A DNA stretch of 64,000 nt from assembly GCF_050920415.1 (NCBI RefSeq), contig NZ_CP169309.1; one strand, given 5' to 3'. The DNA is from Escherichia coli (GTDB lineage: Bacteria; Pseudomonadota; Gammaproteobacteria; Enterobacterales; Enterobacteriaceae). Below the pieces are notes generated by a model. The model saw only the letters and a list, made by a program, of their open reading frames with translations, did no database searches and had not been told where the DNA came from. A program made the position numbers and the translations under genes. Below are positions 3,836 through 57,055 of the stretch, piece by piece; the first letter of the stretch is position 1; each line of letters opens with the position of its first letter.

Positions 3836-4021
3836 GTGAAAAGTGCAGACGTGATCGCCATCCTGAAGCAGCATGGCTGGGAACATATTCGAACCCGTGG
3901 TAGTCATCATCAGTTCCGCCACCCTGTCCATCCGGGTCTGGTGACGGTTCCGCACCCTAAAAAAGATATTAAGCCCGGTACGCTGGCGCAAATTGGGCGT
4001 CAGGCTGGTTTAACATTTTAA
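3836..4021 (+). CDS. HicA-family (YcfA-like) toxin-like small protein, type II toxin-antitoxin
   Basis: 61-aa ORF, GTG start, with GW..R.RGSHH.F.HP...TVPHP.KD...GTL..I..QAGL pattern typical of HicA; TATAAT at 3813-3818 upstream; immediately followed by a HicB-like ORF. Confidence 0.7.
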   Translation: MKSADVIAILKQHGWEHIRTRGSHHQFRHPVHPGLVTVPHPKKDIKPGTLAQIGRQAGLTF

Positions 4022-4037
4022 AATTTCAGGAGGCAAT

Positions 4038-4448
4038 ATGTTTTATCCCGCCTATATCCACAGTGATCCTGACGGCAGCGCCAGCGGTTTTTTCCCTGAT
4101 GTTCCAGGCTGTTATTTTGCTGGTGATACGCTGGACAACGCTTTCCAGGATGCGCGAAGTGCACTGGTCGCGCACTTCGAAACCTTATGCGAGATGAATG
4201 AAGAGTTGCCGCTTCCAGGCTCTGTGGAAACACATCTGGTCCAGCGTGCGCAGGACTTTATTGGCGGGCAATGGTTGCTGGTGGATATCAATATGAATCA
4301 GTTCGAAGGTCGGGCTGAACGTATCAATATTACGATGCCGAAAAGATTACTGAACAAGATTGATACCTACGTGCGCAATAACCCAGACTACGCCAACAGA
4401 AGTGCGTTTCTGGCGGAAGCTGCCCGGCGTGTATTGCCGGGCGTTTAA
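4038..4448 (+). CDS. HicB-family antitoxin-like protein with C-terminal ribbon-helix-helix DNA-binding region
   Basis: 136-aa ORF 16 nt after the HicA-like gene, RBS AGGAGG; C-terminal segment ITMPKRLLNKID...RSAFLAEAARRVL resembles an RHH motif. Confidence 0.7.
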   Translation: MFYPAYIHSDPDGSASGFFPDVPGCYFAGDTLDNAFQDARSALVAHFETLCEMNEELPLPGSVETHLVQRAQDFIGGQWLLVDINMNQFEGRAERINITMPKRLLNKIDTYVRNNPDYANRSAFLAEAARRVLPGV

Positions 4449-4780
4449 TCTCGCGTTTCGATGGTGAGCGGGCGGACCAGGCTGTACAGCCACAGACCAA
4501 AACAAGCGATGGTGCCAATCACCACGGTGAGGAACACACTGACTGACAGGCCTGCAAGCAATCCCGCAGGCAGGGCCAGCAGGCCGTGGATCACGGTGTC
4601 GTTCCATCTCACCTGATCGTAGCCAAACATGCCTAAAACGCCGCAAACCAGACCGTAAATCACCATTGGTGTTCCGAGGCCAATCAGCAATAAACGGTAG
4701 ATAATTGAAGGTTTAATACGCTTTATCTGTACTGTGGATGTTTTACTGGGGTTATTCATTAGTTTGGTCAATAGTTCCAT
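4445..4780 (-). CDS. Hypothetical small inner-membrane protein (about 111 aa, 2-3 predicted TM segments)
   Basis: ORF with long hydrophobic stretches; start uncertain (ATG at 4780 or 4828); no clear RBS. Confidence 0.35.
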   Translation of the reverse strand: MELLTKLMNNPSKTSTVQIKRIKPSIIYRLLLIGLGTPMVIYGLVCGVLGMFGYDQVRWNDTVIHGLLALPAGLLAGLSVSVFLTVVIGTIACFGLWLYSLVRPLTIETRD

Positions 4781-8242: not shown

Positions 8243-8294
8243 TTTACCGGTGGATGTCGGTGCGGCTGGCCTACGCTCTCGCACTGACCTTCAG

Positions 8295-8374
8295 GCTTGA
8301 TAAGACGCGTTAAGCGTCGCATCAGGCAATGTGCACCCTACGTTGGATGCGGCGCGAGCGCCTTATCCAACCTA
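8295..8374. repeat. REP/BIME-type palindromic units (two inverted REP-like copies)
   Basis: gcttgataagacgcg...gcgtcgcatcaggca and gttggatgcggcg...gccttatccaacctac palindromes. Confidence 0.5.
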
Positions 8375-10342
8375 CGGATGGCAATGCTTTTCCTCATTCA
8401 CCCAGATCCGCATTTCGCCTTCACCCCGGTTAGCCCAGCTAAACCACGGGATAAATGTCAGAGTTTGCGGCTGGCGTTTGGCTGGCGCGCTGTCGTAATG
8501 CCACAGCGGTTGCTGCTCTGGATTGCTCTGTTCATACCGGTAACCCGGTGCCTGGATTAAGATCTTATGGCGGAACAATCCATTACCTTCAAATGTCGTA
8601 AATGGCGCATCGGCGGGCAGCCACAGGTTATGCAGTGACTCGCCGTTGTCGGCCTGTTCCAGGCAATACACCAGCGGGCCGCGCTGAATCGCCACTTTTC
8701 CGGCGACGTGACGCACCAGCGGGTTACCGTAAACGCGACGTACCGGCATTGGCAAAGTCAGATTCAGCGTGTCGCCCTCCTGCCATTCGCGGGTAATGTG
8801 CAAATACCCTTTACGAATATCCTGCTCGACCTCTTCCCCATTCAATGTAATCTGCGGCTGTGTGCACCAGTCCGGCAGACGTAAAGCCAGCGTATGACGC
8901 ACCGGCTGGGGCGATTCAACCGCAATTGTCACCTGTTCCTGCCACGGATAGTTTCCGCTAACCCGCAGACGCAGCGTGCCATTTTCTACCGGCACTTCCA
9001 TGCTGTTTCCTGCGTAGATGTTGATATACAACGCATCTTCACGCGGCGTGTAGAGATAATGACCAATCGAGGTTAGCACGCGGGCGATATTTGGCGGACA
9101 ACAAGCGCAACCAAACCAACGCTGGCGGATCGGCTTAACGTGATCGTAGATATGGTTGAATTTCAGCGATTTTGGATGTACTTCCAGCGGATTCACATAG
9201 AAGAAATGTTTGCCATCCAGCGCCATGCCGCCGAGCACGGTGTTGTACAGTGCGCGCTCCATCACATCGGCATATTGACTGTCGCCTTCCATTTCCAGCA
9301 TTCGCCGGGCGAACATCATCAGGCCGATGGAAGCACAGCTTTCGGCGTATACCGTGTCATTCGGCAGATCGTAATCGCTGCTGAACGCTTCGCCGCTGCT
9401 TTGTGAGCCAATGCCGCCGGTAATATATAACTGACGCTGGGCCATATTGTTCCACAGCCGCAGGCAGTCCTGACGCTTGCTTTCATCGTGACTTAAACGC
9501 GCGAGATGCGCGACGCCGGTCATCAGGTAGACAAAACGTACCGCGTGACCAATGGCAGTTTGCTGCTGTGCGATGGGCAAATGTGCCTGGCTGTAGGCTT
9601 TGTCTTTCACCATCCACGCCGGGCCGTAGGTGTGCCAGTGCGAGGTCTGCCCGCGCTTTTCATATTCCTGGTCGTAATAGTGCGGTTGCGCACCACGCTG
9701 TTCGACAAAATAGTTCGTCAGCGCCAGGTAGCGCGGCTCTTCGGTCACTTCATATAGGCGCATTAGTGCCAGTTCAATTTCCGGGTGACCAGGATAACCG
9801 TGTAACTTACTTTCACCTGGACCAAATACGCTGTCGATATGATCGGCCAGACGGCAAACCACTTCCAGCAAGCGCCGCTTGCCCGTGGCCTGGAAGAAGG
9901 CGACTCCGGCTTCAATCAGATGACCGGCGCAGTAAAGTTCATGACACTCCGCCAGATTGCTCCAGCGTTCTTCGGGCGTTTTTACCGTAAAGTAAGTATT
10001 GAGATAGCCATCTTCGCACTGGGCGGAAGCGACCAGTTCGATTACCTCGTCAGCAGTTTTTTCCAGTTCGGCATCCGGCTTCTGGCACAGCGACCAGGCT
10101 ACCGCTTCCAGCCATTTGGCGACGTCGCTGTCCTGAAACACCATCCCGTAAAATTCACCGTCTTGCAGTCCTGCGGCAATGCGAAAGTTTTCAATCGCAT
10201 GGCTGGGTTCCGCTTCTGGGATACGATCGTTCAAGGCATCCCACTGATAAGGAATCACCACGTCGCGGACCAGTTGTTGGTACTGACCGAGGAACGGATC
10301 GCTGACCGTCAGTTTATGCAGATCGACTTCCGAAATGTTCAT
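8372..10342 (-). CDS. Glycoside hydrolase family 127-like protein (DUF1680; beta-L-arabinofuranosidase HypBA1-like)
   Basis: 656-aa product from ATG at 10342 with AAGGAG RBS; contains E-x-C (E334, C336) and C-x-C-C (C412, C414, C415) motifs spaced like the zinc/nucleophile site of GH127; not in the K-12 sgbE-yiaT interval as I recall. Confidence 0.75.
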   Translation of the reverse strand: MNISEVDLHKLTVSDPFLGQYQQLVRDVVIPYQWDALNDRIPEAEPSHAIENFRIAAGLQDGEFYGMVFQDSDVAKWLEAVAWSLCQKPDAELEKTADEVIELVASAQCEDGYLNTYFTVKTPEERWSNLAECHELYCAGHLIEAGVAFFQATGKRRLLEVVCRLADHIDSVFGPGESKLHGYPGHPEIELALMRLYEVTEEPRYLALTNYFVEQRGAQPHYYDQEYEKRGQTSHWHTYGPAWMVKDKAYSQAHLPIAQQQTAIGHAVRFVYLMTGVAHLARLSHDESKRQDCLRLWNNMAQRQLYITGGIGSQSSGEAFSSDYDLPNDTVYAESCASIGLMMFARRMLEMEGDSQYADVMERALYNTVLGGMALDGKHFFYVNPLEVHPKSLKFNHIYDHVKPIRQRWFGCACCPPNIARVLTSIGHYLYTPREDALYINIYAGNSMEVPVENGTLRLRVSGNYPWQEQVTIAVESPQPVRHTLALRLPDWCTQPQITLNGEEVEQDIRKGYLHITREWQEGDTLNLTLPMPVRRVYGNPLVRHVAGKVAIQRGPLVYCLEQADNGESLHNLWLPADAPFTTFEGNGLFRHKILIQAPGYRYEQSNPEQQPLWHYDSAPAKRQPQTLTFIPWFSWANRGEGEMRIWVNEEKHCHP

Positions 10343-10352
10343 CTTGTGCTCC

Positions 10353-11753
10353 TTAAGGCTGTACATGACGCTGACGCAGGTCGCTAGCAATGCGTGACAT
10401 CATAGGGTTATTGAGTTTGCAAAAGCGGATCGCCATCGCCAGCAGCAGGTGGAACAGCGCAGGCAGCAATGTTTCCATCGCTGCGATCCCGCCAAGCGAA
10501 CTGGCGGTCTGGTTTTCCACGCCTGGCTGGTAGGCGACAAAAATAAACAGCAGGCTGATGATCCCGGCGCTGGAGGCCCAGGCCAGCTTGATGAAAAACA
10601 GATTGAAGGCGAAGTTCATGCCGGAAGAACGTACGCGGGTTTTCCACTCGCCGTAGTCATCGGCAAAGGCCATCAATGAGAAGTGCAATGGCAATGTGAA
10701 GCCAAGAATCACGCCATTACCAAGGATCACCGCCAGCCACAGCGTTTGATAAGCCGGGCCAGAAGGCAGGAACCACATCAACACCGCCAGCGCGGCGAGG
10801 AGCAGGTTGGTGTAGTAGTAAATTTTGACGGTATCGAAACGTCGCGTTAACGGGCTGACAATCACCGAGCCGATAATGGAGGCGAAGGTGACCATAGTGA
10901 AGAACAGCGACGTGTAGCCCGTACTGCCTTGTAAGACGTAGGTAATGAAGTACATATACCCACCGCCGCGAATATTAAAGACGTTAATCAGCAGGAAAGA
11001 CATGACCAGCATCAGCAGCAGTTGGTCGTTGTTTCGCAGCCCGGCAAGATGTTCGCGCAGGGTAAATTTCCCCATTGTGGAGAGTGGCACCCGTTCACGA
11101 ACCCAGAAGAAACAGCACAGGAACATCACCACAGCGATGGCGCACAGCACGCCGACGCCCAGTTGATAGCCGCGCGCGGCATTACCCTGACCGAAGAGAT
11201 CCACCATCCACGGCAGGCCAACCGAAACCAGAAATCCCGCTACGCCGCAGAGAACGAATCGCCAGGACTGGCAGGAGATCACTTCATTGTGGCGGGTGGT
11301 CATGGTGTTGATCAGCGCGCAGTACGGCACGTTGATGGCGGTATAACCGACTGAAAGGAGCAGGTAAGTGCCGAACGCCCAGGCGATTTTTACTCCCATG
11401 CTGGCATCTGGCACGGTGAACGTCAGGATGCCGATAATGCCGATGGGAATGGCAATCCACAACTGCCACGGACGAAAGCGCCCCCAGCGACTTTGCGTCC
11501 GGTCGGCAATGACGCCCATCACCGGGTCGGAGATGGCATCAAACACGCGCAGTGCAATAAACAGCGTGCCGACCAGCGCCGGAGTTAAGCCAAAAACGTC
11601 GGTGTAGAAAAAGGTGAGAAAGTTCATGATCAGGCAAGTTATGACGGTGCCGCCAGCGTCACCCAGGCCGTAGCCTATTTTTTCCCGTACAGATAACGCG
11701 TCGTCAATTTTACCTTTAGCGATATCAGCGGTGGTAATCGGTGTAGAGGTCAT
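10353..11753 (-). CDS. Glycoside-pentoside-hexuronide (GPH) family cation symporter, MelB-like
   Basis: 466-aa polytopic membrane protein (about 12 TM) with GPH-type N-terminal motif (GYGLGD); RBS GAGGAA before ATG at 11753; stop lies 10 nt upstream of the GH127 start, so the two are co-oriented and probably co-transcribed. Confidence 0.8.
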
Positions 11754-11915
11754 AGATATTCCTCGCAAATAGAGAGCATTTTTTTGTTTTATTGCAATGA
11801 CCTGATTAATTTCGCCGTTATCTGGAATATCAACAAGGCGAGAAAAGAGTAAAAAAAGGTGACGATTCCGACCTGAATTTAAAAGTGTGAATTGGATCAG
11901 GTGAAATTAATGTTT

Positions 11916-11930
11916 TTGATTAATAATCAA
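11916..11930. promoter_or_regulatory. Perfect 15-bp palindrome TTGATTAATAATCAA in the divergent promoter region between the GPH transporter and the AraC-type regulator; candidate operator
   Basis: Exact inverted repeat seen in sequence; related half-sites (gattaat, ttaatcattaat) nearby. Confidence 0.3.
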
Positions 11931-11978
11931 AAGGTAATGTGTTTAATCATTAATGAATAAGCGGGAAATTACATATCA

Positions 11979-12794
11979 ATGCTCGAATTATCCATGACGT
12001 TACCGATTAAAGTGCAAAATGGTGGATTATTTATTTCCCGTGGCGTAGGGAGGCATCCGGCAAGGCGGCTGGAGTCATGGGAAATTATCTTTGTCGAAAA
12101 AGGTCGATTAGCGATTCAGGAAGAAGAGCGGATATTTCTGGTCGATGCGGGAGAGAGTTTATTACTCTGGCCGAACCGACAGCATGTTGGGGTAGAGGAT
12201 TTTCCCGCCGATCTCAAATTTTACTGGCTGCATTTTGAGGTTAAAGCGCCGGATAGCGACCCGCGCTGGCTCACTCATCTTAGTGTGCCGCAACAAACGA
12301 AGGTTGCCGATCCGCAGGCGCTGGTGGCCCTGTTTCGCCAGTTCTTAAGCGAACAGGAAAAGCATCAACGCACTCCGGCGCTGGAGTTTATTGTGCTGCT
12401 GATTTTGCAGCAACTCACCCGTGACGCGCGTCTTGATGAACAGGCCGATGCCGCAGGTACCACGCTTGCCTGGAAAGCGCAGAAACTGATCCGCACGCAA
12501 TATCATCGCCCGCTTTCCACTGCGCTTTTAGCCCGCGAGCTGTACTGCAATGCCGATTATCTTGGGCGCGTCTATCGGCGGGTGTTTCATCTGACGTTAA
12601 CAGAAGCAATCCACCGCCAGCGGGTGCGCGAAGCCGAAAAGCTGTTAATTAGCGAAGCGCGATCGCTCACGGAAGTGGCGGCGTTGTGCGGGTTTAATGA
12701 CGTTGGCTATTTCCGGCAGATTTTTCGCAAACACACCGGTTTAACGCCAGCTGCGTGGAAGCGACGTTACAGCAAGGAACATATCAATTCGTAG
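11979..12794 (+). CDS. AraC/XylS-family transcriptional regulator (N-terminal cupin-like sensing domain, C-terminal double HTH)
   Basis: 271-aa ORF; C-terminal region ...ELYCNADYLGRVYRRVFHLTLTEAIHRQRVREAEKLLISEARSLTEVAALCGFNDVGYFRQIFRKHTGLTPAAWKR is a typical AraC HTH; divergent from the transporter-GH127 pair. Confidence 0.8.
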   Translation: MLELSMTLPIKVQNGGLFISRGVGRHPARRLESWEIIFVEKGRLAIQEEERIFLVDAGESLLLWPNRQHVGVEDFPADLKFYWLHFEVKAPDSDPRWLTHLSVPQQTKVADPQALVALFRQFLSEQEKHQRTPALEFIVLLILQQLTRDARLDEQADAAGTTLAWKAQKLIRTQYHRPLSTALLARELYCNADYLGRVYRRVFHLTLTEAIHRQRVREAEKLLISEARSLTEVAALCGFNDVGYFRQIFRKHTGLTPAAWKRRYSKEHINS

Positions 12795-12825: not shown

Positions 12826-13521
12826 TTACTGCCCGTAATAGGCATTGGCCCCATGTTTACGCAGGTAGTGCTTATCCAGCAGTTCGTTTTGCATCGCAGG
12901 GAGCTGCGGCGCAAGCTGGCGCGAGAACAGGCCCATATAGGCGCACTCTTCCAGCACTACGGCATTATGCACCGCATCGGCGGCGTTTTTTCCCCAGGCG
13001 AACGGGCCGTGAGAATGCACCAGTACCGCCGGGATTTGTGCCGGACTCCTGCCGCGTTCTTCGAAAGTTTCAATGATCACTTCGCCGGTCTGATATTCAT
13101 ATTCGCCGTTAATCTCCTCTACGGTCATCTGTCGCGTGCAGGGGATGGCACCATAGAAATAATCGGCGTGCGTGGTGCCCCAGGCGGGGAGATCCAGCCC
13201 GGCCTGTGACCAGATGGTGGCGTGGCGCGAGTGGGTATGCACAATGCCACCGATTTCGGCATAGCGACGGTAAAGCGCCAGATGCGTTGGCGTATCGGAC
13301 GAGGGCTTTTTGCTACCTTCCACCACCTTGCCGCTGGCTATCTCAACCACCACCATATCGTCGGCGGTCATCACGTCGTACTCGACGCCGGAAGGCTTAA
13401 TTACCATCCATTGCCGCGTCTCGTCTACCGCACTGACATTGCCCCAGGTAAACGTCACCAGATGGTGAGCGGGAAGCGCCAGATTTGCCGCCAGTACGTC
13501 GGCTTTCAGTTGTTCTAACAT
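12826..13521 (-). CDS. sgbE: L-ribulose-5-phosphate 4-epimerase
   Basis: 231-aa class II aldolase/epimerase fold; last gene of the yiaK-S operon. Confidence 0.9.
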
Positions 13522-14375
13522 ATAAATCCAGCCTCCTGCATACGCGCTTCAATCCAGCGCCGTGCCTGAATAATCTCCAGCACCGGCTCTTTGGCTTTTT
13601 CGGTCCACATCTCAATCAGAAATGATCCGCGATAGTTCAGTTCATGCAGCGTTTTGAAGATACCAACGAAATCGACGCAGCCTTCGCCAAACGGCACGTC
13701 GCGGAACTGTCCGGGGCTATGCTCGGTCACTGGCTGGGTATCTTTCAGGTGGATGGCGGCGATACGGTCAATGCCCAGTTTCAGTTCAGCGGGAACATCA
13801 TTGCCCCAGGCGCTAAGGTTGCCGACGTCCGGGTAGACGGTGAACCACGGCGAGGCGAGCATCTCGTCCCACTTTTTCCATTTGCTGATGGAGTTCATAA
13901 ACGAGGTATCCATAATCTCCACCGCCAGCATTACTTGTGATGCCGCCGCCTGTTCGACAGCCCACGTCAGCCCTTCAGCAAAACGTTGCCGGGTACCTTC
14001 GTCATGGTCTTCGTAATAGACGTCGTAGCCCGCCAGTTGAATGGTGCGAATACCGAGATCGCGCGCCAGGCGAATCGCTTTGCTCATGATCTCCCGCGCC
14101 CGTTCGCGCACCGCCTCGTCCCGGCTGCCAAAAGGAAAACGGCGATGGGCAGACAGACACATTGACGGAATGGTAACACCCGTTTCGATCATCGCGGTGA
14201 CCAGCGAGGCACGTTGCGCGGCGCTCCAGTCAAGGCGTGACAGCCGTTCATCGGTTTCATCCACCGACATTTCGACAAAATCAAAGCCACAGCTTTTCGC
14301 CAGCACCAGCCGCTCGGGCCAGGAGAGATCTTTCGCCAGTGCTTTTTCATAAATCCCTAACGGATGATTACGCAC
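13515..14375 (-). CDS. sgbU: L-xylulose-5-phosphate 3-epimerase
   Basis: 286-aa product if the GTG at 14375 is the start (tool ORF extends to 14408); TIM-barrel sugar-phosphate epimerase; synteny. Confidence 0.85.
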
Positions 14376-15030
14376 GCGCGCCTCCCCAGATAGCGTCGAT
14401 TTGCGCATGGAAGTCGGCAGCTACCTGTGCCGGATTTGCTGCGCCTGCCAGCGCCCGCCCGGCAATAAACGCTTTCACGCGGATATCTTTAAACAGCGGC
14501 AGGTCAGCAGGCGTAATCCCGCCGGTAATGGAAAGCTCAAGGCCGATATCGGAAAGCGCCTTCATGCGTGCCAGATCGGCTTCGCCCCACTGTTGCCCGC
14601 TGGCTTGCGCGTCACGGCCACGATGATAAATGGCCTGCCGCACGCCAATACGATGCCAGTCGCGGGCGTCGTCCAGCGTCCAGTTACCAAAAAGCTCTAT
14701 CTGGATTTCACCACCGCAGCGTTGCGCCATTGCGTGGCCTTTTTCTACCGTCGCGAGCGGTGCAGCGCAGATGATGGTCATCCAGTTAGCGCCTGCGCCA
14801 AACGCCTGTTGCGCGAGCGTTTCACCAGCATCGGCGACCTTCCAGTCAGCAACGATGATTTTGTCCGGGCACTGTTCGCGCAAGGCTTTCACCGCGCCAA
14901 GCCCTTCGTTTAAACAGAGAATGGTGCCCGCTTCGACGATATCGACGCTGTCTTTTAACAGCGCAACGTCGCGCTGTGCGGCTTCAAGTGATGAGTGGTC
15001 GAGGGCCAGTTGCAGAAGTGGTCTGCTCAT
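14368..15030 (-). CDS. sgbH: 3-keto-L-gulonate-6-phosphate decarboxylase
   Basis: 220-aa OMP-decarboxylase-like protein; synteny. Confidence 0.9.
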
Positions 15031-16523
15031 AATGTGTTCTCCTTAACGCGGGCATGAAAGCCCTGTAGTGCGGCAATGAGGTGCTGATAGCGTTGGTATT
15101 TTTGTTGGTAAAGCTGATGGGCGGTCATATCCGGTAACAGGGTGCGCACCGGGTGCTGTTGATCGCGCTGGGCTTCGCTGAAATCGCGATAAACACCGGT
15201 GCCGACGCGGGCTGCAAGCGCCGCGCCAAAACAGCCCGTTTCTTGCACCTGCGGCAGTTCGATACGCAGTCCGCTAACGTCCGCCAGCATTTGCATCCAG
15301 ACATCGGAGTGCGCCGGGCCGCCAGTGACGCGCAGGGTGTGCACATCAGTAAAACGTTCGCGCATCCGGTTGAGGTGGGTCATATGGCTGAACACCACGC
15401 CTTCATAAATGGCCTGCAACAGGTGTGCGCGGGTGTGAATGGCCTGCATCCCGTAGAAACCGCTGGTCATCTCGAGTCCGGCGTTGCTGCCGTACAGGAA
15501 CGGCAGGAAAAAGAGATCGCCACCGGCTTTCGGTAAGCTGGCAACAGCCTGGTTGATCTCTGCAAACGAGATTTCTCCCCACTGCGCGGTAAACCATTCG
15601 AGATTGCCGGAAGAGGTAGGGCTGGCTTCGTGAACGATAAATTCACCGTCGTTAACGTAGCGGCCATAGACATACGGATGCGCTTCACCGCCACCTAAAC
15701 CGCTGGTTATGCCGCTGGTCACCGCCCAGGTCCCCATCACCGCATTGAGGGTAAATTCGTCTTCGATTCCGGCGCAGAGTGCGGTAGAAACCACATCAAA
15801 CAGGCCGCCGACAACGGGCGTACCCGCTTTCAGACCGGTCAGTGCGGCTGTCTGAGCGGTGATTTCCCCGCAGATTTCGGCAGATCCAACAACAGGCGGC
15901 AGGGCGTGATTGATTTCACTGATCCCCAGCCAGTTGGTGAGGCACGGGTCATATTCCCCGCGACTCATGTTGTAGAGATTGGATTCGGAAATATTGCTCT
16001 CTTCGCAGCCTTTGACACCGGTTAAACACCAGCGCAGGTAGTCGTGCGTCATCATCACGCAGCCAATTTGCGCGTAGCGTTCTGGTTCGTGTTCTTTCAG
16101 CCAGCGTAACAGCGACACCGGATGCCCGGTCCACAAGGTTTGTCGGGTCAGCGGGTAGAGTTTTTCCGGGATGTTATCTTCCTGCCAGCGACGAACGATT
16201 TCCATCGCCCGGCGATCCGAGGACAAAATGGCGTTACCGAGCGGCTTGTCGTTTTTATCCAGCAAAAACAAGCCCTTTCCCTGTGCGGAGATACCGATGC
16301 CGACAATTTGCTCTCCGCTAACGCTGGAATGGGTAAGCAGGGCGCGAATGACAGCCATGCAGCATTGCCACAGTTCTTCTATATCGCGCTCTGCCCAGCC
16401 TGGCTGCGGGCTTAATGCGCACAGCGGCAGGCGCTGCACGCCTGCCTCCCAGCCTTCGCGGTCATACAGTCCGGCTTTTAGCCAGCTTCCGCCACAATCT
16501 AACCCCAGCCAGTATTGCGTCAT
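15027..16523 (-). CDS. lyxK: L-xylulose/3-keto-L-gulonate kinase
   Basis: 498-aa FGGY-family carbohydrate kinase; synteny. Confidence 0.9.
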   Translation of the reverse strand: MTQYWLGLDCGGSWLKAGLYDREGWEAGVQRLPLCALSPQPGWAERDIEELWQCCMAVIRALLTHSSVSGEQIVGIGISAQGKGLFLLDKNDKPLGNAILSSDRRAMEIVRRWQEDNIPEKLYPLTRQTLWTGHPVSLLRWLKEHEPERYAQIGCVMMTHDYLRWCLTGVKGCEESNISESNLYNMSRGEYDPCLTNWLGISEINHALPPVVGSAEICGEITAQTAALTGLKAGTPVVGGLFDVVSTALCAGIEDEFTLNAVMGTWAVTSGITSGLGGGEAHPYVYGRYVNDGEFIVHEASPTSSGNLEWFTAQWGEISFAEINQAVASLPKAGGDLFFLPFLYGSNAGLEMTSGFYGMQAIHTRAHLLQAIYEGVVFSHMTHLNRMRERFTDVHTLRVTGGPAHSDVWMQMLADVSGLRIELPQVQETGCFGAALAARVGTGVYRDFSEAQRDQQHPVRTLLPDMTAHQLYQQKYQRYQHLIAALQGFHARVKENTL

Positions 16524-16526
16524 GGC

Positions 16527-17513
16527 TTATTGCACCTCATCCACGGCTTTCAGCAGTTCATCGCCCTGCGGAACATCTTTTACAAACATGTCGCGGACCT
16601 GAGTACCCAGTACGTCGCTAAAGGCTTTGCGATCAAGTTCGGTGATGACTTCCACGCCAGCGTCTTTCATGCCGTCGATGATTTTTTGCTGATTTTCGGC
16701 GACCAATTTGCGCTGGTAATTACCCGCTTCTTGCGCAGATGAAATTAGCGCTTGCTGGAACTCCGGGCTTAAGCCATCAAACTTCGCTTTGTTGATCACC
16801 ACCAGAAGTGGGGAATAGGCATGGTGCGTCAGAGAAAGGTACTTCTGCACTTCATAAAATTTGGCTGACCAGACGACGTTGATCGGGTGTTCCTAAGCGT
16901 CGATAGTGCGCGTTTCCAGCCCGGTATAGACTTCGGCAAATGGCATCGGAATCGGGTTAGCGCCAAAGACTTTGAATGCGGCGATATTCATCGGGCTATT
17001 GTTGGTGCGTATTTTCAGCCCTTTCAGGTCGGCAGGTGTTTTAACTGGCTGGCGTGAGTTGGTGACATCGCGCCAGCCGTTTTCCCAGTAGGCCAGTACT
17101 TTCAGTCCCTTACCTTCAAGGGAGGCCTTCAGTTCATCGCCGACTTTGCCGTCGAGTGTTTTATGCGCGTGGGCGGTATCGCGGAACAGGAAAGGAACAT
17201 CAAGCAGGTTCATCACAGGTGATAATCCGGCAAAGTTATTCGAGCCAGACATCTCCATATCAATAGTGCCGCCACGCACGCCGCTGATCATCGCTTGTGC
17301 GTTGCCGAGAGTACTGTCCGGGAACAGTTTTAATTTCAGCTCGCCTTTGGTTCTCTCCTGTAATAATTCATTAAATTTTTTCGCTGCAATATGTTGTGAG
17401 TCGGTTTGTGAGGTTTCATAACCGAAACGTAATGATTGTGCCGCCAGCGAAGACGTACTGAATGCAGCGAGGCCAGCAATGAATAATGCGTAGGTTACAG
17501 AGCGTAATTTCAT
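16527..17513 (-). pseudogene. yiaO: TRAP transporter periplasmic solute-binding protein with an in-frame amber (TAG) stop at 16893-16895
   Basis: Two ORFs (206 aa and 107 aa) lie in the same frame, separated only by a TAG; translation across it reads ..RTIDA*EHPINVVWSAKFYEVQKY.., so a single nonsense substitution rather than a frameshift. Confidence 0.75.
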
Positions 17514-17525
17514 TATATTTTCCTT

Positions 17526-18803
17526 TTAATTAATCCATTTCAACGGGAGGATGATGAGATCGGGAATAAAAACAAATAAGGCTAATAAGGAATATAAAAC
17601 CAGGACGTAAGGGAAAACGCCTCTGACTGCATCATCGAATTTGAGTTTAGCCACCCCTGAAATAACGTTAAGCACATTACCGATAGGCGGTGTAATTAAG
17701 CCGATTGAGCAGTTGATGATAAACATGACTCCGAAGTAAATCGGATCGATTCCTGCCTCTTTAACTAAAGGCATTAATACCGGGGTAAGAATTAACACCG
17801 TCGGCGTTAAATCCATTACCATACCGACTATCAAAATCGCCACCATAATGACGATAAACAGCAGACGCGGTGAATCGACCAACGGTTGCAGTAAATCAGA
17901 AACCATCATCGGCAATTCAGCAATGGTAATCAGCCAGGCAGAAACTTGTGCCGAGGCCACCAGAAACATCACCACTGAGGTGGTTTTCGCCGCGCCAATG
18001 AGTACATGCCAAAGTGTAGCGAAGGTCATTTCACGGTAAATAACTGTGGCGACAAACAACGCATAGAAAGCAGCAACGGCCCCGGCTTCGGTAGGGGTAA
18101 ACAGACCGGAGCGAAAGCCGCCAATAATAATGACCGGAAGAAATAGCGCCCAGATACCGGAAACAAAAGATTGCCAGATTTCTCGTTTCGTTGCTTTTTG
18201 CTGACGGGGTAAATTAAGACGACTGGCCTGCCACCACCAGGTGAGCATCAGCGTTGCGCCCATCATAATGCCTGGGGCAATACCCGCCATAAACAACTTA
18301 CTGATGGATAATCCGCTGGAAACACCGAAGATAATAAACGGAATGGAAGGGGGAATAATTGGCGCGATAATGCCGCCAGAGGCAATCAGCCCCGCAGCCC
18401 GGTTGACCGGGTAGTTAGCGCTGCGCATCATCGGCACTAATAGCGCGGCAACGGCGGCGGTATCCGCAACAGCAGAACCGGAAAGGCTCGCCATAATCAT
18501 TGCCGCCAGCACGCCGACGTAGCCCAGCCCGCCTGGTTTATGCCCCACCAGTTTCATCGGCAGGTCAACAATGCGTTTTGATAAGCCGCCCGCATTCATG
18601 ATTTCACCCGCCAGTACAAAGAACGGAATCGCCAGCAGGGAGAAGCTGTCAGCACCGTTTACCAGCGTTTGCGCCATGATCTGGACATCAAACATATCCA
18701 GCCAGAACATAAGCGCCGCCCCGCACAACAGTAGCGACCAGGCAATAGGCAAACCGATGGCAATGCCACCCAACAGGCAGCCCAGAAAAATCAGCACAGC
18801 CAT
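17526..18803 (-). CDS. yiaN: TRAP transporter large permease subunit
   Basis: 425-aa polytopic membrane protein (DctM family); synteny. Confidence 0.9.
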   Translation of the reverse strand: MAVLIFLGCLLGGIAIGLPIAWSLLLCGAALMFWLDMFDVQIMAQTLVNGADSFSLLAIPFFVLAGEIMNAGGLSKRIVDLPMKLVGHKPGGLGYVGVLAAMIMASLSGSAVADTAAVAALLVPMMRSANYPVNRAAGLIASGGIIAPIIPPSIPFIIFGVSSGLSISKLFMAGIAPGIMMGATLMLTWWWQASRLNLPRQQKATKREIWQSFVSGIWALFLPVIIIGGFRSGLFTPTEAGAVAAFYALFVATVIYREMTFATLWHVLIGAAKTTSVVMFLVASAQVSAWLITIAELPMMVSDLLQPLVDSPRLLFIVIMVAILIVGMVMDLTPTVLILTPVLMPLVKEAGIDPIYFGVMFIINCSIGLITPPIGNVLNVISGVAKLKFDDAVRGVFPYVLVLYSLLALFVFIPDLIILPLKWIN

Positions 18804-18805
18804 GA

Positions 18806-19279
18806 TTAAGCTCCTTGCGGTGGCGGCGTTAGAGAATTGCTACGCGTGATGAGTTGATATAAAAGGCGCAGCTCAAAGAATGCGATAACGAGGCTGGTGG
18901 GCAGACAAGCGGCATACATCAGGCCGATGGGCAAGCCGAGGATCGGTGAATAATCGCTCCAGTCCTGAATTGTTTTTAGCGTTGCGCCCCAGGCCAGTGC
19001 GCCACAAATAAATAAGATTAAGGAGTGGGTAACCAGAGCGACTCGTCGCTGCCACGCGGGGGAGAGTTTCTCCACCAGAAAGGTAACCTGAACGTGGGCG
19101 TTATCCATAAAAGCCACAATCGCGCCAATAAAGGTTAACCAGACAAATAAATAGCGCGACAATTCATCTACAGATAAAATACTTGTCTGAAAACCATATC
19201 TTAAAATAATGTTTATAAACACAATACAGGAAAGTACGGCGAGATTAATCGCCAGTATTGCTTCAAGTATTTTTTTCAT
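18806..19279 (-). CDS. yiaM: TRAP transporter small permease subunit
   Basis: 157-aa, 4-TM DctQ-like protein; synteny. Confidence 0.85.
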
Positions 19280-19386: not shown

Positions 19387-19857
<471 letters not shown>

Positions 19858-19865
19858 TTATCTCC

Positions 19866-20864
19866 TTATAACGCCTGGATTTTTGCCCATACGCTGTCAT
19901 CAACGGTAATACCGTTACGGCGGTTTTCTGCCAGCAGGGTGGTAAATTCGTGGCCGGGTAAGCGAATGGCCTGGTTTTCATCGGCGCGTTCAGCGGTAGT
20001 AACATAATCCATGATGCGTTGCAGCTTGGCATCGCGGGTGGGGCCGTCGATCAATTTATCCACTTCGATGGCGATAAAGATTTGCGAAACACCGTATTCG
20101 TCGCTGTTATCCTGGGTGACTTCAGCAACTGACGCGCCGTCAGAAAGAAGAGTAGCGATCATATCCAATACGATCGACATACCGGAACCTTTCCAGTAAC
20201 CCATTGGCAAAATACGGCGATTTTTCTCGATTACACCAGGTTCTTTGGTGAGGTTGCCTTCATCGTCAAAGCCGCCATCGACCGGTAACTGACGGCCCGC
20301 CAGGCGGTTAACTTCTAACATGCCATAAGAGAACATCGACATCGACATATCGACCATAGTGATCGGCGTGGAAGGAATTGCGACGATCAGCGGGTTAGTG
20401 CCGATGCGACACTCTTTTGCGCCCCACGGCGGCATTACGGCGATGGAGTTGGTCCAGCAAATGCCAATATAGCCTTTTTCCGCCGCCTGCCAGCCGTAGC
20501 TGCCGCCGCGCATCCAGTGGTTGGCATTACGCAACGCCACCAGACCAATACCGTGATCGGCAGCCAGTTCAATGGCGCGATCCATCATCTTTTTCGCCGT
20601 CAGATTGCCGATTGAACGCTGGGCGTCCCACTGTTCAATTGCGCCGAGGCTGGTTATACGTTTGGGTTGGGCATCAGGAATGATATCGCCGTTTTCCAGT
20701 TGTTGAATGAAACGAGGGAAACGGTTGACGCCGTGAGAATAAACGCCGGATTCGGTGGTGCGGGCGAACATTTCGGCACAGGCATCAGCCGTTTCGCTGT
20801 CAACGCCGCGTGAAATTAAGACTCGATTAAAGGCTGCTTTTAACTGCTCAAATGTCACTTTCAA
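19866..20864 (-). CDS. yiaK: 2,3-diketo-L-gulonate reductase
   Basis: 332-aa Ldh_2-family oxidoreductase; first gene of the operon. Confidence 0.9.
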
Positions 20865-21064: not shown

Positions 21065-21913
21065 ATGGGGAAAGAAGTGATGGGAAAAAAAGAGAACGAG
21101 ATGGCGCAGGAAAAAGAGCGTCCAGCCGGAAGCCAGAGTCTGTTTCGCGGGTTGATGCTGATTGAGATTTTGAGCAACTATCCAAATGGTTGCCCGCTGG
21201 CGCATCTCTCGGAGCTGGCAGGTTTAAATAAGAGTACCGTCCATCGCTTATTGCAGGGATTACAGTCCTGCGGCTATGTGACCACCGCGCCCGCCGCAGG
21301 GAGTTACCGCCTGACTACCAAATTTATTGCCGTCGGGCAGAAGGCGCTGTCTTCGCTGAATATCATTCATATCGCCGCTCCGCATCTTGAGGCACTGAAC
21401 ATCGCCACTGGTGAAACCATTAACTTCTCCAGCCGCGAAGACGATCACGCTATTTTGATTTATAAGCTGGAACCCACGACCGGGATGCTGCGAACCCGAG
21501 CTTATATAGGCCAGCATATGCCGCTCTACTGTTCCGCAATGGGCAAGATCTATATGGCGTTTGGTCACCCGGACTACGTGAAGTCATACTGGGAAAGCCA
21601 TCAGCATGAGATCCAGCCGTTAACCCGCAATACCATTACCGAGCTGCCCGCGATGTTCGACGAACTGGCGCACATTCGTGAAAGCGGAGCGGCGATGGAC
21701 AGAGAAGAAAACGAACTCGGCGTCTCCTGTATTGCTGTTCCGGTGTTTGATATTCATGGGCGGGTGCCGTACGCCGTGTCGATTTCTCTTTCGACATCAC
21801 GTCTGAAACAGGTGGGGGAGAAAAATCTCCTGAAACCACTGCGTGAAACCGCGCAGGCTATTTCTAATGAACTGGGATTTACTGTCAGGGACGACCAGGG
21901 CGCGATCACATAA
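21065..21913 (+). CDS. yiaJ: IclR-family transcriptional repressor of the yiaK-S operon
   Basis: 282-aa ORF with N-terminal HTH (LSELAGLNKSTVHRLL) and IclR effector domain; divergent from yiaK. Confidence 0.85.
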   Translation: MGKEVMGKKENEMAQEKERPAGSQSLFRGLMLIEILSNYPNGCPLAHLSELAGLNKSTVHRLLQGLQSCGYVTTAPAAGSYRLTTKFIAVGQKALSSLNIIHIAAPHLEALNIATGETINFSSREDDHAILIYKLEPTTGMLRTRAYIGQHMPLYCSAMGKIYMAFGHPDYVKSYWESHQHEIQPLTRNTITELPAMFDELAHIRESGAAMDREENELGVSCIAVPVFDIHGRVPYAVSISLSTSRLKQVGEKNLLKPLRETAQAISNELGFTVRDDQGAIT

Positions 21914-22604: not shown

Positions 22605-23912
<1,308 letters not shown>

Positions 23913-27379: not shown

Positions 27380-27766
27380 GGCGGATGAGTCCTTATTGCT
27401 GCGATTTCAGACAGTTTGCCAGCGATAAGCCAGACAAAACTCATCCCTGAGCGGTAAGTCCACAGGATGAGAAGCAAGGGTGAGCGATCGCGCGCAAAAA
27501 ACGGCCGAATTTTGCGATAAACCCCACATTTTCTGCGATTTAGCGCCAATCTGAATCGTTAACACGTGACATAGTTTCAGATTTGGACTATTCCTTGGGG
27601 TGCTCTTGACGGCTATTTTTGATATGATTTGAGATTCAACTCTCAAATTTGTGAAAAATATAAGGTGTTGGAATGTAGACTGGCCCCCTGAATCTCCAGA
27701 CAACCAGTATCACTTAAATAAGTGATAGTCTTAATACTAGTTTTTAGACTAGTCATTGGAGAACAG

Positions 27767-28132
27767 ATGATTGATGTCTTAGGGCCGGAGAAACGCAGAC
27801 GGCGTACCACACAGGAAAAGATCGCAATTGTTCAGCAGAGCTTTGAACCGGGGATGACGGTCTCCCTCGTTGCCCGGCAACATGGTGTAGCAGCCAGCCA
27901 GTTATTTCTCTGGCGTAAGCAATACCAGGAAGGAAGTCTTACTGCTGTCGCCGCCGGAGAACAGGTTGTTCCTGCCTCTGAACTTGCTGCCGCCATGAAG
28001 CAGATTAAAGAACTCCAGCGCCTGCTCGGCAAGAAAACGATGGAAAATGAACTCCTCAAAGAAGCCGTTGAATATGGACGGGCAAAAAAGTGGATAGCGC
28101 ACGCGCCCTTATTGCCCGGGGATGGGGAGTAA
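27767..28132 (+). CDS. insC: IS2 OrfA (InsC), HTH DNA-binding protein
   Basis: 121-aa product starting [18 protein letters not shown]; leucine-zipper/HTH IS3-family OrfA. Confidence 0.85.
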
Positions 28133-28995
28133 GCTTAGTCAGCCGTTGTCTCCGGGTGTCGCGTGCGCAGTTGCACGTCATTCTCAGACGAACCGATGAC
28201 TGGATGGATGGCCGCCGCAGTCGTCACACTGATGATACGGATGTGCTTCTCCGTATACACCATGTTATCGGAGAGCTGCCCACGTATGGTTATCGTCGGG
28301 TATGGGCGCTGCTTCGCAGACAGGCAGAACTTGATGGTATGCCTGCGATCAATGCCAAACGTGTTTACCGGATCATGCGCCAGAATGCGCTGTTGCTTGA
28401 GCGAAAACCTGCTGTACCGCCATCGAAACGGGCACATACAGGCAGAGTGGCCGTGAAAGAAAGCAATCAGCGATGGTGCTCTGACGGGTTCGAGTTCTGC
28501 TGTGATAACGGAGAGAGACTGCGTGTCACGTTCGCGCTGGACTGCTGTGATCGTGAGGCACTGCACTGGGCGGTGACTACTGGCGGCTTCAACAGTGAAA
28601 CAGTACAGGACGTCATGCTGGGAGCGGTGGAACGCCGCTTCGGCAACGATCTTCCGTCGTCTCCAGTGGAGTGGCTGACGGATAATGGTTCATGCTACCG
28701 GGCTAATGAAACACGCCAGTTCGCCCGGATGTTGGGACTTGAACCGAAGAACACGGCGGTGCGGAGTCCGGAGAGTAACGGAATAGCAGAGAGCTTCGTG
28801 AAAACGATAAAGCGTGACTACATCAGTATCATGCCCAAACCAGACGGGTTAACGGCAGCAAAGAACCTTGCAGAGGCGTTCGAGCATTATAACGAATGGC
28901 ATCCGCATAGTGCGCTGGGTTATCGCTCGCCACGGGAATATCTGCGGCAGCGGGCTTGTAATGGGTTAAGTGATAACAGATGTCTGGAAATATAG
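28090..28995 (+). CDS. insD: IS2 OrfB (InsD), DDE transposase catalytic domain
   Basis: 301-aa ORF overlapping OrfA in the -1 frame; rve integrase-type catalytic core. Confidence 0.85.
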
Positions 28996-29034
28996 GGGCA
29001 AATCCAGAATGATTAAATCCGACCAGGAGACCTG

Positions 29035-43837: not shown

Positions 43838-44115
43838 ATCGCTAAATAATAGAGCAACCTTTAATAATCTTCTGCTGAATAAAGATTGTCTCATATATTA
43901 ATTTTATGAGATTTTTTAGGATTATATCAAAGAGAAGAAAAGAACTTATTAAGCTAGAATAGCCACAGGTGCTTGAGACTGTTTGTCTCAGGTATTCACC
44001 GAAAGGCAGACAGAGAAAAGCCCCACCTGACTATAAATCAAAGTGAGGCCCCTCTATGCATAGACACCATAAGGTTAGCCTCTTACTCGTTGGAAATCAA
44101 CACAGGAGGCTGGGA

Positions 44116-44268
44116 ATGCCGCAGAAATATAGATTACTTTCTTTAATAGTGATTTGTTTCACGCTTTTATTTTTCACCTGGATGATAAGAGATTCACTGT
44201 GTGAATTGCATATTAAACAGGAGAATTATGAGCTGGCGGCGTTTTTAGCCTGCAAATTGAAAGAGTAA
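44116..44268 (+). CDS. hokA: Hok-family small toxic membrane peptide (type I toxin); the locus appears uninterrupted
   Basis: 50-aa peptide MPQKYRLLSLIVICFTLLFFTWMIRDSLCELHIKQENYELAAFLACKLKE with AGGAGG RBS; terminal hairpin at about 44270-44300. Confidence 0.8.
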   Translation: MPQKYRLLSLIVICFTLLFFTWMIRDSLCELHIKQENYELAAFLACKLKE

Positions 44269-44456
44269 GAGTCTTCGGCGGGAAGTTATTCCCGCCTTTC
44301 TTACGGCGTTGCGCATTCTCATTGCACCCAAATTTATTCTTCACAAAAATAATAATAGATTTTATTACGCGAACGATTATTTATTTCCTGAATAAACAAA
44401 TAAAAAAATCCCCGCCATTTGGCAGGGATCTTAGATTCTGTGCTTTTAAGCAGAGA

Positions 44457-56109: not shown

Positions 56110-56139
56110 AAAGCCTGCTCAGCGAGCAGGCTTTTTTGC
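56110..56139 (+). terminator. Rho-independent terminator after proK (aaaagcctgctc-agc-gagcaggctttttt)
   Basis: Perfect hairpin plus T-run. Confidence 0.65.
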
Positions 56140-56152
56140 ATTTGAAGCCCAT

Positions 56153-56270
56153 GAGGATGAGAACCTCCGGGGGCGGGGAGGTTCGACTCGAGCGAAGCGA
56201 GAGAACGTTGCGCCAGCAACGGCCCGCAGGGCGAGCCACGAAGTGGCGAGTAATCCTCTATCACCGACCA
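56153..56270 (+). repeat. tRNA-Pro 3'-end-containing repeat unit 1 (118 nt), ending in aatcctctatcaccgacca
   Basis: Contains a T-arm-like ggaggttcgactc, an insertion of about 60 nt, and then an exact copy of the last 19 nt of proK; followed by hairpin aaaaaccagcctacgggctggtttttt. Confidence 0.5.
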
Positions 56271-56320
56271 ATTTAGAAAAACCAGCCTACGGGCTGGTTT
56301 TTTGCTTTCTGCGGCCTGAA

Positions 56321-56424
56321 GAGGATGAGAACTTCCGGGGGCAGGGAGGTTCGACTCCAGCAAAGCGAGAGAACGTTGTGGCAGCAACGGCCCGCAGTGG
56401 CGAGTAATCCTCTGGCACCGACCA
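56321..56424 (+). repeat. tRNA-Pro 3'-end-containing repeat unit 2 (104 nt), ending in aatcctctggcaccgacca
   Basis: About 90% identical to unit 1 with a 14-nt internal deletion; ends in a 2-mismatch copy of the proK 3' end. Confidence 0.5.
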
Positions 56425-56433
56425 AATCTGAAC

Positions 56434-56515
56434 GTAGGCCTGATAAGACGCGTCAGCGCCGCATCAGGCAACGGCACCGCACTTATTGTCGGATGCGGCG
56501 TGAACGCCTTATCTG
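56434..56515. repeat. BIME (two REP units) downstream of the proK repeats
   Basis: gtaggcctgataagacgcgtcagcgccgcatcaggca ... cggatgcggcgtgaacgccttatc palindromes. Confidence 0.5.
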
Positions 56516-57055
56516 ACCGACACACCACATATTTCCCTGCCAAATTTGCGCCCCACATCTCACTATCCATTAACGGATTTGTGACAGAATCCATTGTCTT
56601 TTTTTATATTTGCTTAAATCTTTTTTTGCGTTACTTATGGCTGGCGCTGGTATTTTCCGCTGTGCGTTTTAGCGTTCATGGTATTAATCGCTCAGATATC
56701 CATCTTTTCCTCAGATTTTTTTCATTAAATGCATAAAACTTAATCACCAAATGTTGCTAAATATTAAGCTGATTGTTCTGGTTATGTTGGCGTAGCACAA
56801 ATTTCTCTGCTGCAAATAGCTGTTTGAAGTTTTTTTAATCTTTGTTTGTGGATTCTCACCGTTGGTGTAAATCCCGGTTGGCTGTATTGACGTTTTCACA
56901 TTCTGTTGACAGATTGTAGGTCACGAGGGGCATTTTATGGAGGATCCGCACTGTTACACTGATGTTAATTAGTACGGCATCCCCACCTCATAACGTTGAC
57001 CCGACCGGGTAAAAAACAAAAAAGGTCAGGCAGCGACAACCCACTGCAAAGGGTT

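Follow-up and report, generated by a model that had tools for sequence, protein, structure and literature searches.

A nonsense substitution interrupts yiaO

The yiaO gene in the window (the whole stretch of 64,000 nucleotides of E. coli DNA that was analysed) is interrupted by a single in-frame amber codon, and this very probably reflects a recent C>T transition that turned a glutamine codon into TAG within one near-clonal haplotype. Direct reading of the minus strand gives ...CGC ACT ATC GAC GCT TAG GAA CAC CCG ATC AAC..., in which the T, A and G of codon 207 lie at window positions 16895, 16894 and 16893, respectively. When 17513..16527 is translated in one frame, 328 codons are obtained (MKLRSV...ETRTIDA-stop-EHPINVVWSAKFYEVQKYLSL...DEVQ-stop) with codon 207 as the sole internal stop and with a normal TAA terminator at 16529..16527. 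Since both sides of the TAG share one frame, a frameshift is ruled out and the lesion is a substitution. Except at the stop, the translation is that of an intact YiaO database protein of 328 aa (P0016, found by a lookup with Gln at position 207), and the gene aligns end to end without gaps to its K-12 counterpart (987/987 nt), which makes it a nonsense pseudogene. The features of the interrupted gene are as follows.

16527..17513, minus strand: yiaO pseudogene, full 987-nt frame, coding when intact for the periplasmic solute-binding subunit of the TRAP transporter YiaMNO (translation, Pfam DctP, PGAP)
16893..16895, minus strand: amber TAG, codon 207 of yiaO, from CAG (Gln) by C>T at window position 16895 (codon read directly; CAG in intact alleles)
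16893..17513, minus strand: still-translatable ORF of 206 aa comprising the signal peptide and the N-terminal 63% of YiaO, ending at the TAG (ORF list)
16527..16892, minus strand: C-terminal remnant, in frame and now untranslated, 121 codons plus TAA (translation; no further amino acid change relative to the intact allele)

These results agree with the original prediction, made from the DNA letters, in placing a TAG at 16893-16895 on the minus strand with both halves of the gene in frame, in ascribing it to a CAG to TAG nonsense substitution (CAG is present in all intact alleles compared) and in expecting truncation at about residue 207 of 328, the actual product being 206 of 328 aa. The span that it assigned to the lesion, 16851-16895, holds for the position of the TAG; its start at 16851 has no special meaning and merely borders the GTG of a 107-aa ORF. 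That ORF is one of two pieces into which the ORF list splits yiaO, the other being the 206-aa frame at 16893..17513. We considered the GTG-started remnant (16527..16850) as a re-initiation product and rejected it, as it has neither a signal peptide nor an evident upstream Shine-Dalgarno sequence.

The truncated product lacks the C-terminal part of the DctP fold

When codon 207 is read as Gln, the Pfam DctP model (PF03480) covers residues 30-312 (model positions 1-285 of 286, E = 5.5e-108), and 88 solved DctP-family chains are matched at E < 1e-10 with the same residue restored. The Pfam match, along with the name yiaO that PGAP gives to the gene in strain MFDS1022581, bears out the identity that had been proposed for this gene. 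Its counterpart in K-12, YiaO (b3579), is the periplasmic 2,3-diketo-L-gulonate-binding subunit and has the same operon position, the same 328 codons and 92.6% DNA identity with no gaps. Relative to the K-12 protein, the window has the TAG in place of CAG at codon 207 and 13 other amino acid differences that reflect lineage divergence.

The affected residue, Gln207, is the Gln of the D-x-Q-E-x-P motif that is conserved among DctP-family binding proteins, and its counterpart in 4p9k, a solved DctP protein, is the Gln of D-G-Q-E-N-P. From the SiaP literature, we take the Asn located two residues past the motif Gln to be a ligand contact. The TAG removes residues 207-328 (122 residues), and with them 106 of the 283 positions that the DctP profile covers, or ~37% of the domain. 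The gene thus no longer has an uninterrupted ORF for the complete two-lobed fold, and we classify it as a DctP-family pseudogene and not as a functional member. The 206-aa fragment keeps its signal peptide and, judging from its sequence, would probably be exported and then degraded. Basal read-through of the UAG, which is followed by a G, could still give traces of full-length YiaO.

The membrane subunits of TRAP transporters carry only substrate that is handed over by their cognate binding protein, a dependence that is established for the family. It follows that intact YiaM and YiaN subunits would be of no use on their own, and, given that ~37% of the DctP domain is missing, we expect that uptake of 2,3-diketo-L-gulonate by YiaMNO is lost.

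The stop codon is present in independent assemblies

Public NCBI and Logan assemblies contain the exact 206-aa product on 49 contigs (85 index blocks), and one of its sources names E. coli M863. The same allele is represented in GenBank by the truncated proteins EGB61413.1 (E. coli M863), EGE62927.1 and BDI48201.1. At the DNA level, yiaO in the window is 100% identical over 987 nt, TAG included, to gene ACE00D_RS00790 of E. coli MFDS1022581 (NZ_CP169399.1), to which PGAP gives a pseudogene flag and the note 'internal stop'. A further TAG carrier, GCA_019569295.1, is one base apart from the window in 6.6 kb. The internal-stop pseudogene is thus already annotated in public records, and it is an ordinary, lineage-restricted one.

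We rejected the idea that the window is MFDS1022581 itself, as the two differ over 64 kb by 10 substitutions, two one-base indels and an extra IS2; they are two independent, near-identical strains. The IS2 copy (1331 bp, 27676..29006) lies between malS and bax with a 5-bp stretch of the reference duplicated at both junctions, and its absence from MFDS1022581 shows that another strain or assembly is the source of the window.

A sequencing or assembly error that hides a true CAG would be the most trivial explanation of the TAG. It draws some plausibility from two homopolymer-length differences in the IS621 copy of the window, scored against two sister assemblies (MFDS1022581 and GCA_001264195.1), which have the pattern typical of long-read error and which indicate that the base accuracy of the window assembly is not perfect. 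However, the C>T substitution sits outside any homopolymer, the identical product is recovered in independent projects, among them M863 and raw runs re-assembled by Logan, and the TAG is found in both MFDS1022581 and GCA_019569295.1. Resequencing of the site, which the original prediction had proposed, has in effect been done by these dozens of independent assemblies. The TAG itself is therefore independently corroborated, and we regard an assembly artefact as effectively refuted and excluded for practical purposes.

The IS621 copy (IS110 family) occupies ~22700-23700 between ysaA and avtA, where N96 has no insertion. Its transposase is split into ORFs of 215 aa and 76 aa by one-base deletions, CCC>CC and GGGG>GGG, near 22957 and 23092, and this split may reflect genuine decay or an error of long-read assembly. 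Note that it was for IS621 that bridge-RNA-guided recombination was described.

The mutation appears recent and confined to one clone of a divergent lineage

The comparison of codon 207 with other E. coli yiaO alleles, also proposed at the outset, found CAG in every intact allele compared, namely those of N96, 2017-02-2CC, GCA_001264195.1 and K-12, which have 99.4% (N96), 97.9% (2017-02-2CC) and 92.6% (K-12) DNA identity to yiaO in the window. CAG also occupies codon 207 in the backgrounds of two other knock-out alleles that are described below. Relative to N96, the nearest intact allele other than the sibling GCA_001264195.1, there are five synonymous differences, and at the protein level the only change is Q207 to stop. 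The exact intact protein (Q207, otherwise identical) is present in 19 contigs (31 index blocks).

One of these 19 contigs, LFZI01000017.1 of the intact sibling GCA_001264195.1, has the same IS621 insertion next to ysaA. Over 12,987 bases it is separated from the window only by the two homopolymer indels in IS621 and by three substitutions, among them T16895C. This common insertion and the three substitutions in 13 kb, one being the C/T difference at codon 207, indicate that the mutation is probably recent and arose within one clone. The TAG carriers are likewise no more than ~0.03% apart in the 13 kb around yiaO. The lack of further decay downstream of the TAG is explained by the youth of the allele and needs no selection.

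The same sibling can be read in the opposite direction, as a revertant at a site that toggles between TAG and CAG under alternating selection. Such a reading has in its favour that a CAG allele occurs within the same near-identical haplotype with no private change in 13 kb except the codon-207 base. A region of 13 kb with at most five variable sites cannot root a tree, though, and a single forward mutation is more parsimonious and fits the CAG seen in all of the more distant relatives, so reversion is highly improbable. We thus favour a single forward C>T transition from CAG.

The haplotype belongs to a divergent part of the species. Among 4858 complete E. coli genomes, yiaO is at least 95% identical to that of the window in 29, and in 4772 the identity is 90-95%. 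Genes of the window are 92.6-99% identical to those of K-12 (yiaO 92.6%, yhjX 92.7%, wecH 93.0%, cspA 99.1%), with the yiaK-S operon at the divergent end of this range. We considered local introgression as the cause of the low yiaO identity and rejected it, since all window genes fall within 92.6-99% of K-12, which points to an overall divergent lineage. The M863 strain is a member of Escherichia (cryptic) clade I (PMC4182557). Because M863 carries the allele and because the divergence from K-12 is window-wide, the window most likely comes from a strain of cryptic clade I (E. coli sensu lato). The population-genomics paper on clade I (PMC10100065) does not mention yia genes or pseudogenes.

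The course of events that we propose starts with a CAG>TAG change (Gln207 to amber) that would have arisen in one near-clonal sublineage of divergent E. coli, of which at least one carrier, M863, belongs to clade I. Translation would then end after 206 residues, leaving a product in which the two-lobed DctP fold is short of its last 122 residues, and without a binding protein the uptake of 2,3-diketo-L-gulonate through YiaMN would be lost. The lyxK-sgbHUE genes would perhaps also be under-expressed through transcriptional polarity and the loss of translational coupling, as discussed below.

Suppression or recoding of the amber codon is improbable

A quite different possibility is that yiaO still functions, with the amber codon decoded by a suppressor tRNA natural to this lineage or read through efficiently because of its context, so that the TAG is tolerated or even regulatory. 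The 121 codons past the TAG that carry no further amino acid change and the occurrence of the allele in many isolates are both compatible with such decoding. In addition, a supE-type (glnV44) tRNA-Gln with a CUA anticodon reads UAG as Gln and would restore the native residue, and to this extent the original remark that an amber-suppressor background would still make the full-length protein is right in principle. The check for suppressor tRNA alleles that accompanied this remark was run in the sister genome, where we located the metT-leuW-glnU-glnW-metU-glnV-glnX tRNA cluster in NZ_CP169399.1 by synteny and read the anticodons. No CUA anticodon was found among the four tRNA-Gln genes of MFDS1022581 that this check covered, which are all wild type (two UUG and two CUG). 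The window has only one tRNA, a tRNA-Pro(CGG). The supE44 (glnV44) allele of laboratory K-12 strains would restore YiaO of the window and is absent from the tRNA-Gln genes of MFDS1022581. Perfect matches to a supE44-type tRNA-Gln (CUA) occur in 155 complete E. coli genomes, and the carriers among the 60 of these 155 matches that were listed all belong to the K-12 lineage or are laboratory-derived.

Additional evidence also speaks against decoding of this codon. A genome tolerant of amber codons would be expected to show other interrupted genes, yet yiaO is the only CDS flagged as a pseudogene among ~65 in the matching 64 kb of the MFDS1022581 annotation, and internal stops are absent from the remaining CDSs of these 64 kb. 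When the window was searched against Rfam, nothing matched at or near the TAG, and hence no recoding element was seen there. Programmed recoding of UAG, as with pyrrolysine, does not fit either, as only one near-clonal haplotype has the stop, with CAG in the orthologues. The intact reading frame past the TAG is accounted for by youth, the carriers being so closely related. With these results we give the decoding of the amber codon very little credence. We also regard as very unlikely, even when taken jointly, that the allele represents an adaptive loss of high-affinity uptake of oxidised ascorbate products, that a trickle of protein is made by low-level read-through or by a non-Gln suppressor (a Tyr, Ser, Leu, Lys or Trp tRNA), or that the site switches reversibly between TAG and CAG. 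A recent nonsense mutation that inactivates yiaO remains the explanation that we prefer.

Operon context and possible polarity

The gene order in the window, yiaJ(plaR) / yiaK-yiaL-yiaM-yiaN-yiaO-lyxK-sgbH-sgbU-sgbE, is that of K-12, and each gene of the operon aligns ungapped and full length to its K-12 counterpart. The neighbouring YiaM and YiaN carry the Pfam domains DctQ and DctM, respectively, which is the synteny of a YiaO orthologue. YiaMNO has been described as an importer of oxidised ascorbate products encoded in an operon repressed by PlaR/YiaJ (PMC6958661). The genes surrounding yiaO are as follows.

21065..21913, plus strand: yiaJ/plaR, divergent repressor gene, intact
19866..20864, minus strand: yiaK, start of the operon, intact
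19387..19854, minus strand: yiaL, intact
18806..19279, minus strand: yiaM, TRAP membrane subunit, intact
17526..18803, minus strand: yiaN, TRAP membrane subunit, intact
15027..16523, minus strand: lyxK, full length relative to K-12, no pseudogene flag
14368..15030, minus strand: sgbH/ulaD-like, full length relative to K-12, no pseudogene flag
13515..14375, minus strand: sgbU, full length relative to K-12, no pseudogene flag
12826..13521, minus strand: sgbE/araD-like, full length relative to K-12, no pseudogene flag

The claim that lyxK-sgbHUE remain intact thus stands as regards their sequence, as all four catabolic genes are full length and unflagged. Their expression is a separate matter since Rho-dependent polarity is possible. 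Specifically, the TAG would leave 369 nt of ribosome-free mRNA before the lyxK ATG, and the first ~80 nt past the stop are C-rich and G-poor, with a C/G ratio of up to 1.77 in 78-nt windows. The lyxK ATG also lies only 3 nt past the normal yiaO stop, so any translational coupling between the two genes would be lost. The untranslated length, the C>G stretch and the 3-nt spacing together make polarity and loss of coupling plausible. On the other hand, lyxK has its own GAGG ~11 nt upstream, and the C>G bias is modest and merely heuristic. That the four downstream genes are still intact might also seem to argue against silencing, but the allele is too young for this to be informative. Overall, we consider it possible, if somewhat doubtful, that the mutation is polar and silences lyxK-sgbHUE, with functional loss of the entire distal half of the operon, an effect that would extend the nonsense explanation rather than replace it.

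Other inactivated yiaO alleles

Independent inactivation of yiaO is common among E. coli assemblies, and other truncated forms of YiaO fall into the same 90% identity cluster as the truncated product of the window. Two of these were checked at the DNA level.

P0003: codon 225 changed to ochre (TAC>TAA), in 284 index blocks; DNA checked (L016 2101-2206), neighbour genes intact
P0004: T5 run near codon 220 shortened by one base, in 30 index blocks; DNA checked (L018 2101-2205), neighbour genes intact

Similar frameshifted forms (P0005-P0007) include an entry from Shigella sonnei. As in the window, these other E. coli and Shigella knock-outs are hit in the central region of yiaO; unlike the allele of the window, they lie on other haplotypes and are independent events. 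This pattern of sequences suggests that yiaO has been repeatedly inactivated in natural E. coli and may be dispensable. The modest point to be drawn from such recurrent loss is that the YiaMNO transporter would have a weak selective value.

Other features of the window

Several additional features of the window differ from K-12. Between yiaT and sgbE (8372-12794) there is an intact island with a glycoside hydrolase family 127 gene, an MFS transporter gene and a divergent gene for an AraC-family regulator. At this position, K-12 has only the ysaC/ysaD pseudogene remnants, and K-12 thus appears to represent the deleted state for this three-gene island. The interval between aldB and yiaW contains a HicA/HicB toxin-antitoxin pair and a small hypothetical gene (3836-4759) that are unannotated in the corresponding K-12 interval. 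The hokA/sok locus (43967-44270) seems to be uninterrupted, and its Rfam sok match (112.8 bits) is full length; the K-12 locus, by contrast, is disrupted by IS150 and has mokA/sokA pseudogenes.

Two RtT RNA repeats (56137-56270 and 56304-56424) lie directly downstream of the tRNA-Pro(CGG) gene and are here next to proK, not tyrT. Elements of the naRNA4/REP type are found at 56437-56518, after the RtT repeats, and at 8294-8372.

Significance for the biology of the clone

The finding has little importance beyond the annotation of the strain. The TAG provides a handy single-base marker for one clonal group in a divergent E. coli lineage, and studies of transport could use the natural pair of CAG and TAG siblings as an isogenic-like control. 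As regards physiology, 2,3-diketo-L-gulonate, which arises from L-ascorbate by oxidation, is predicted not to enter cells of the clone through YiaMNO (PMC6958661, PMC7660916), and their expression of the L-xylulose/3-keto-L-gulonate branch may be poor as well.
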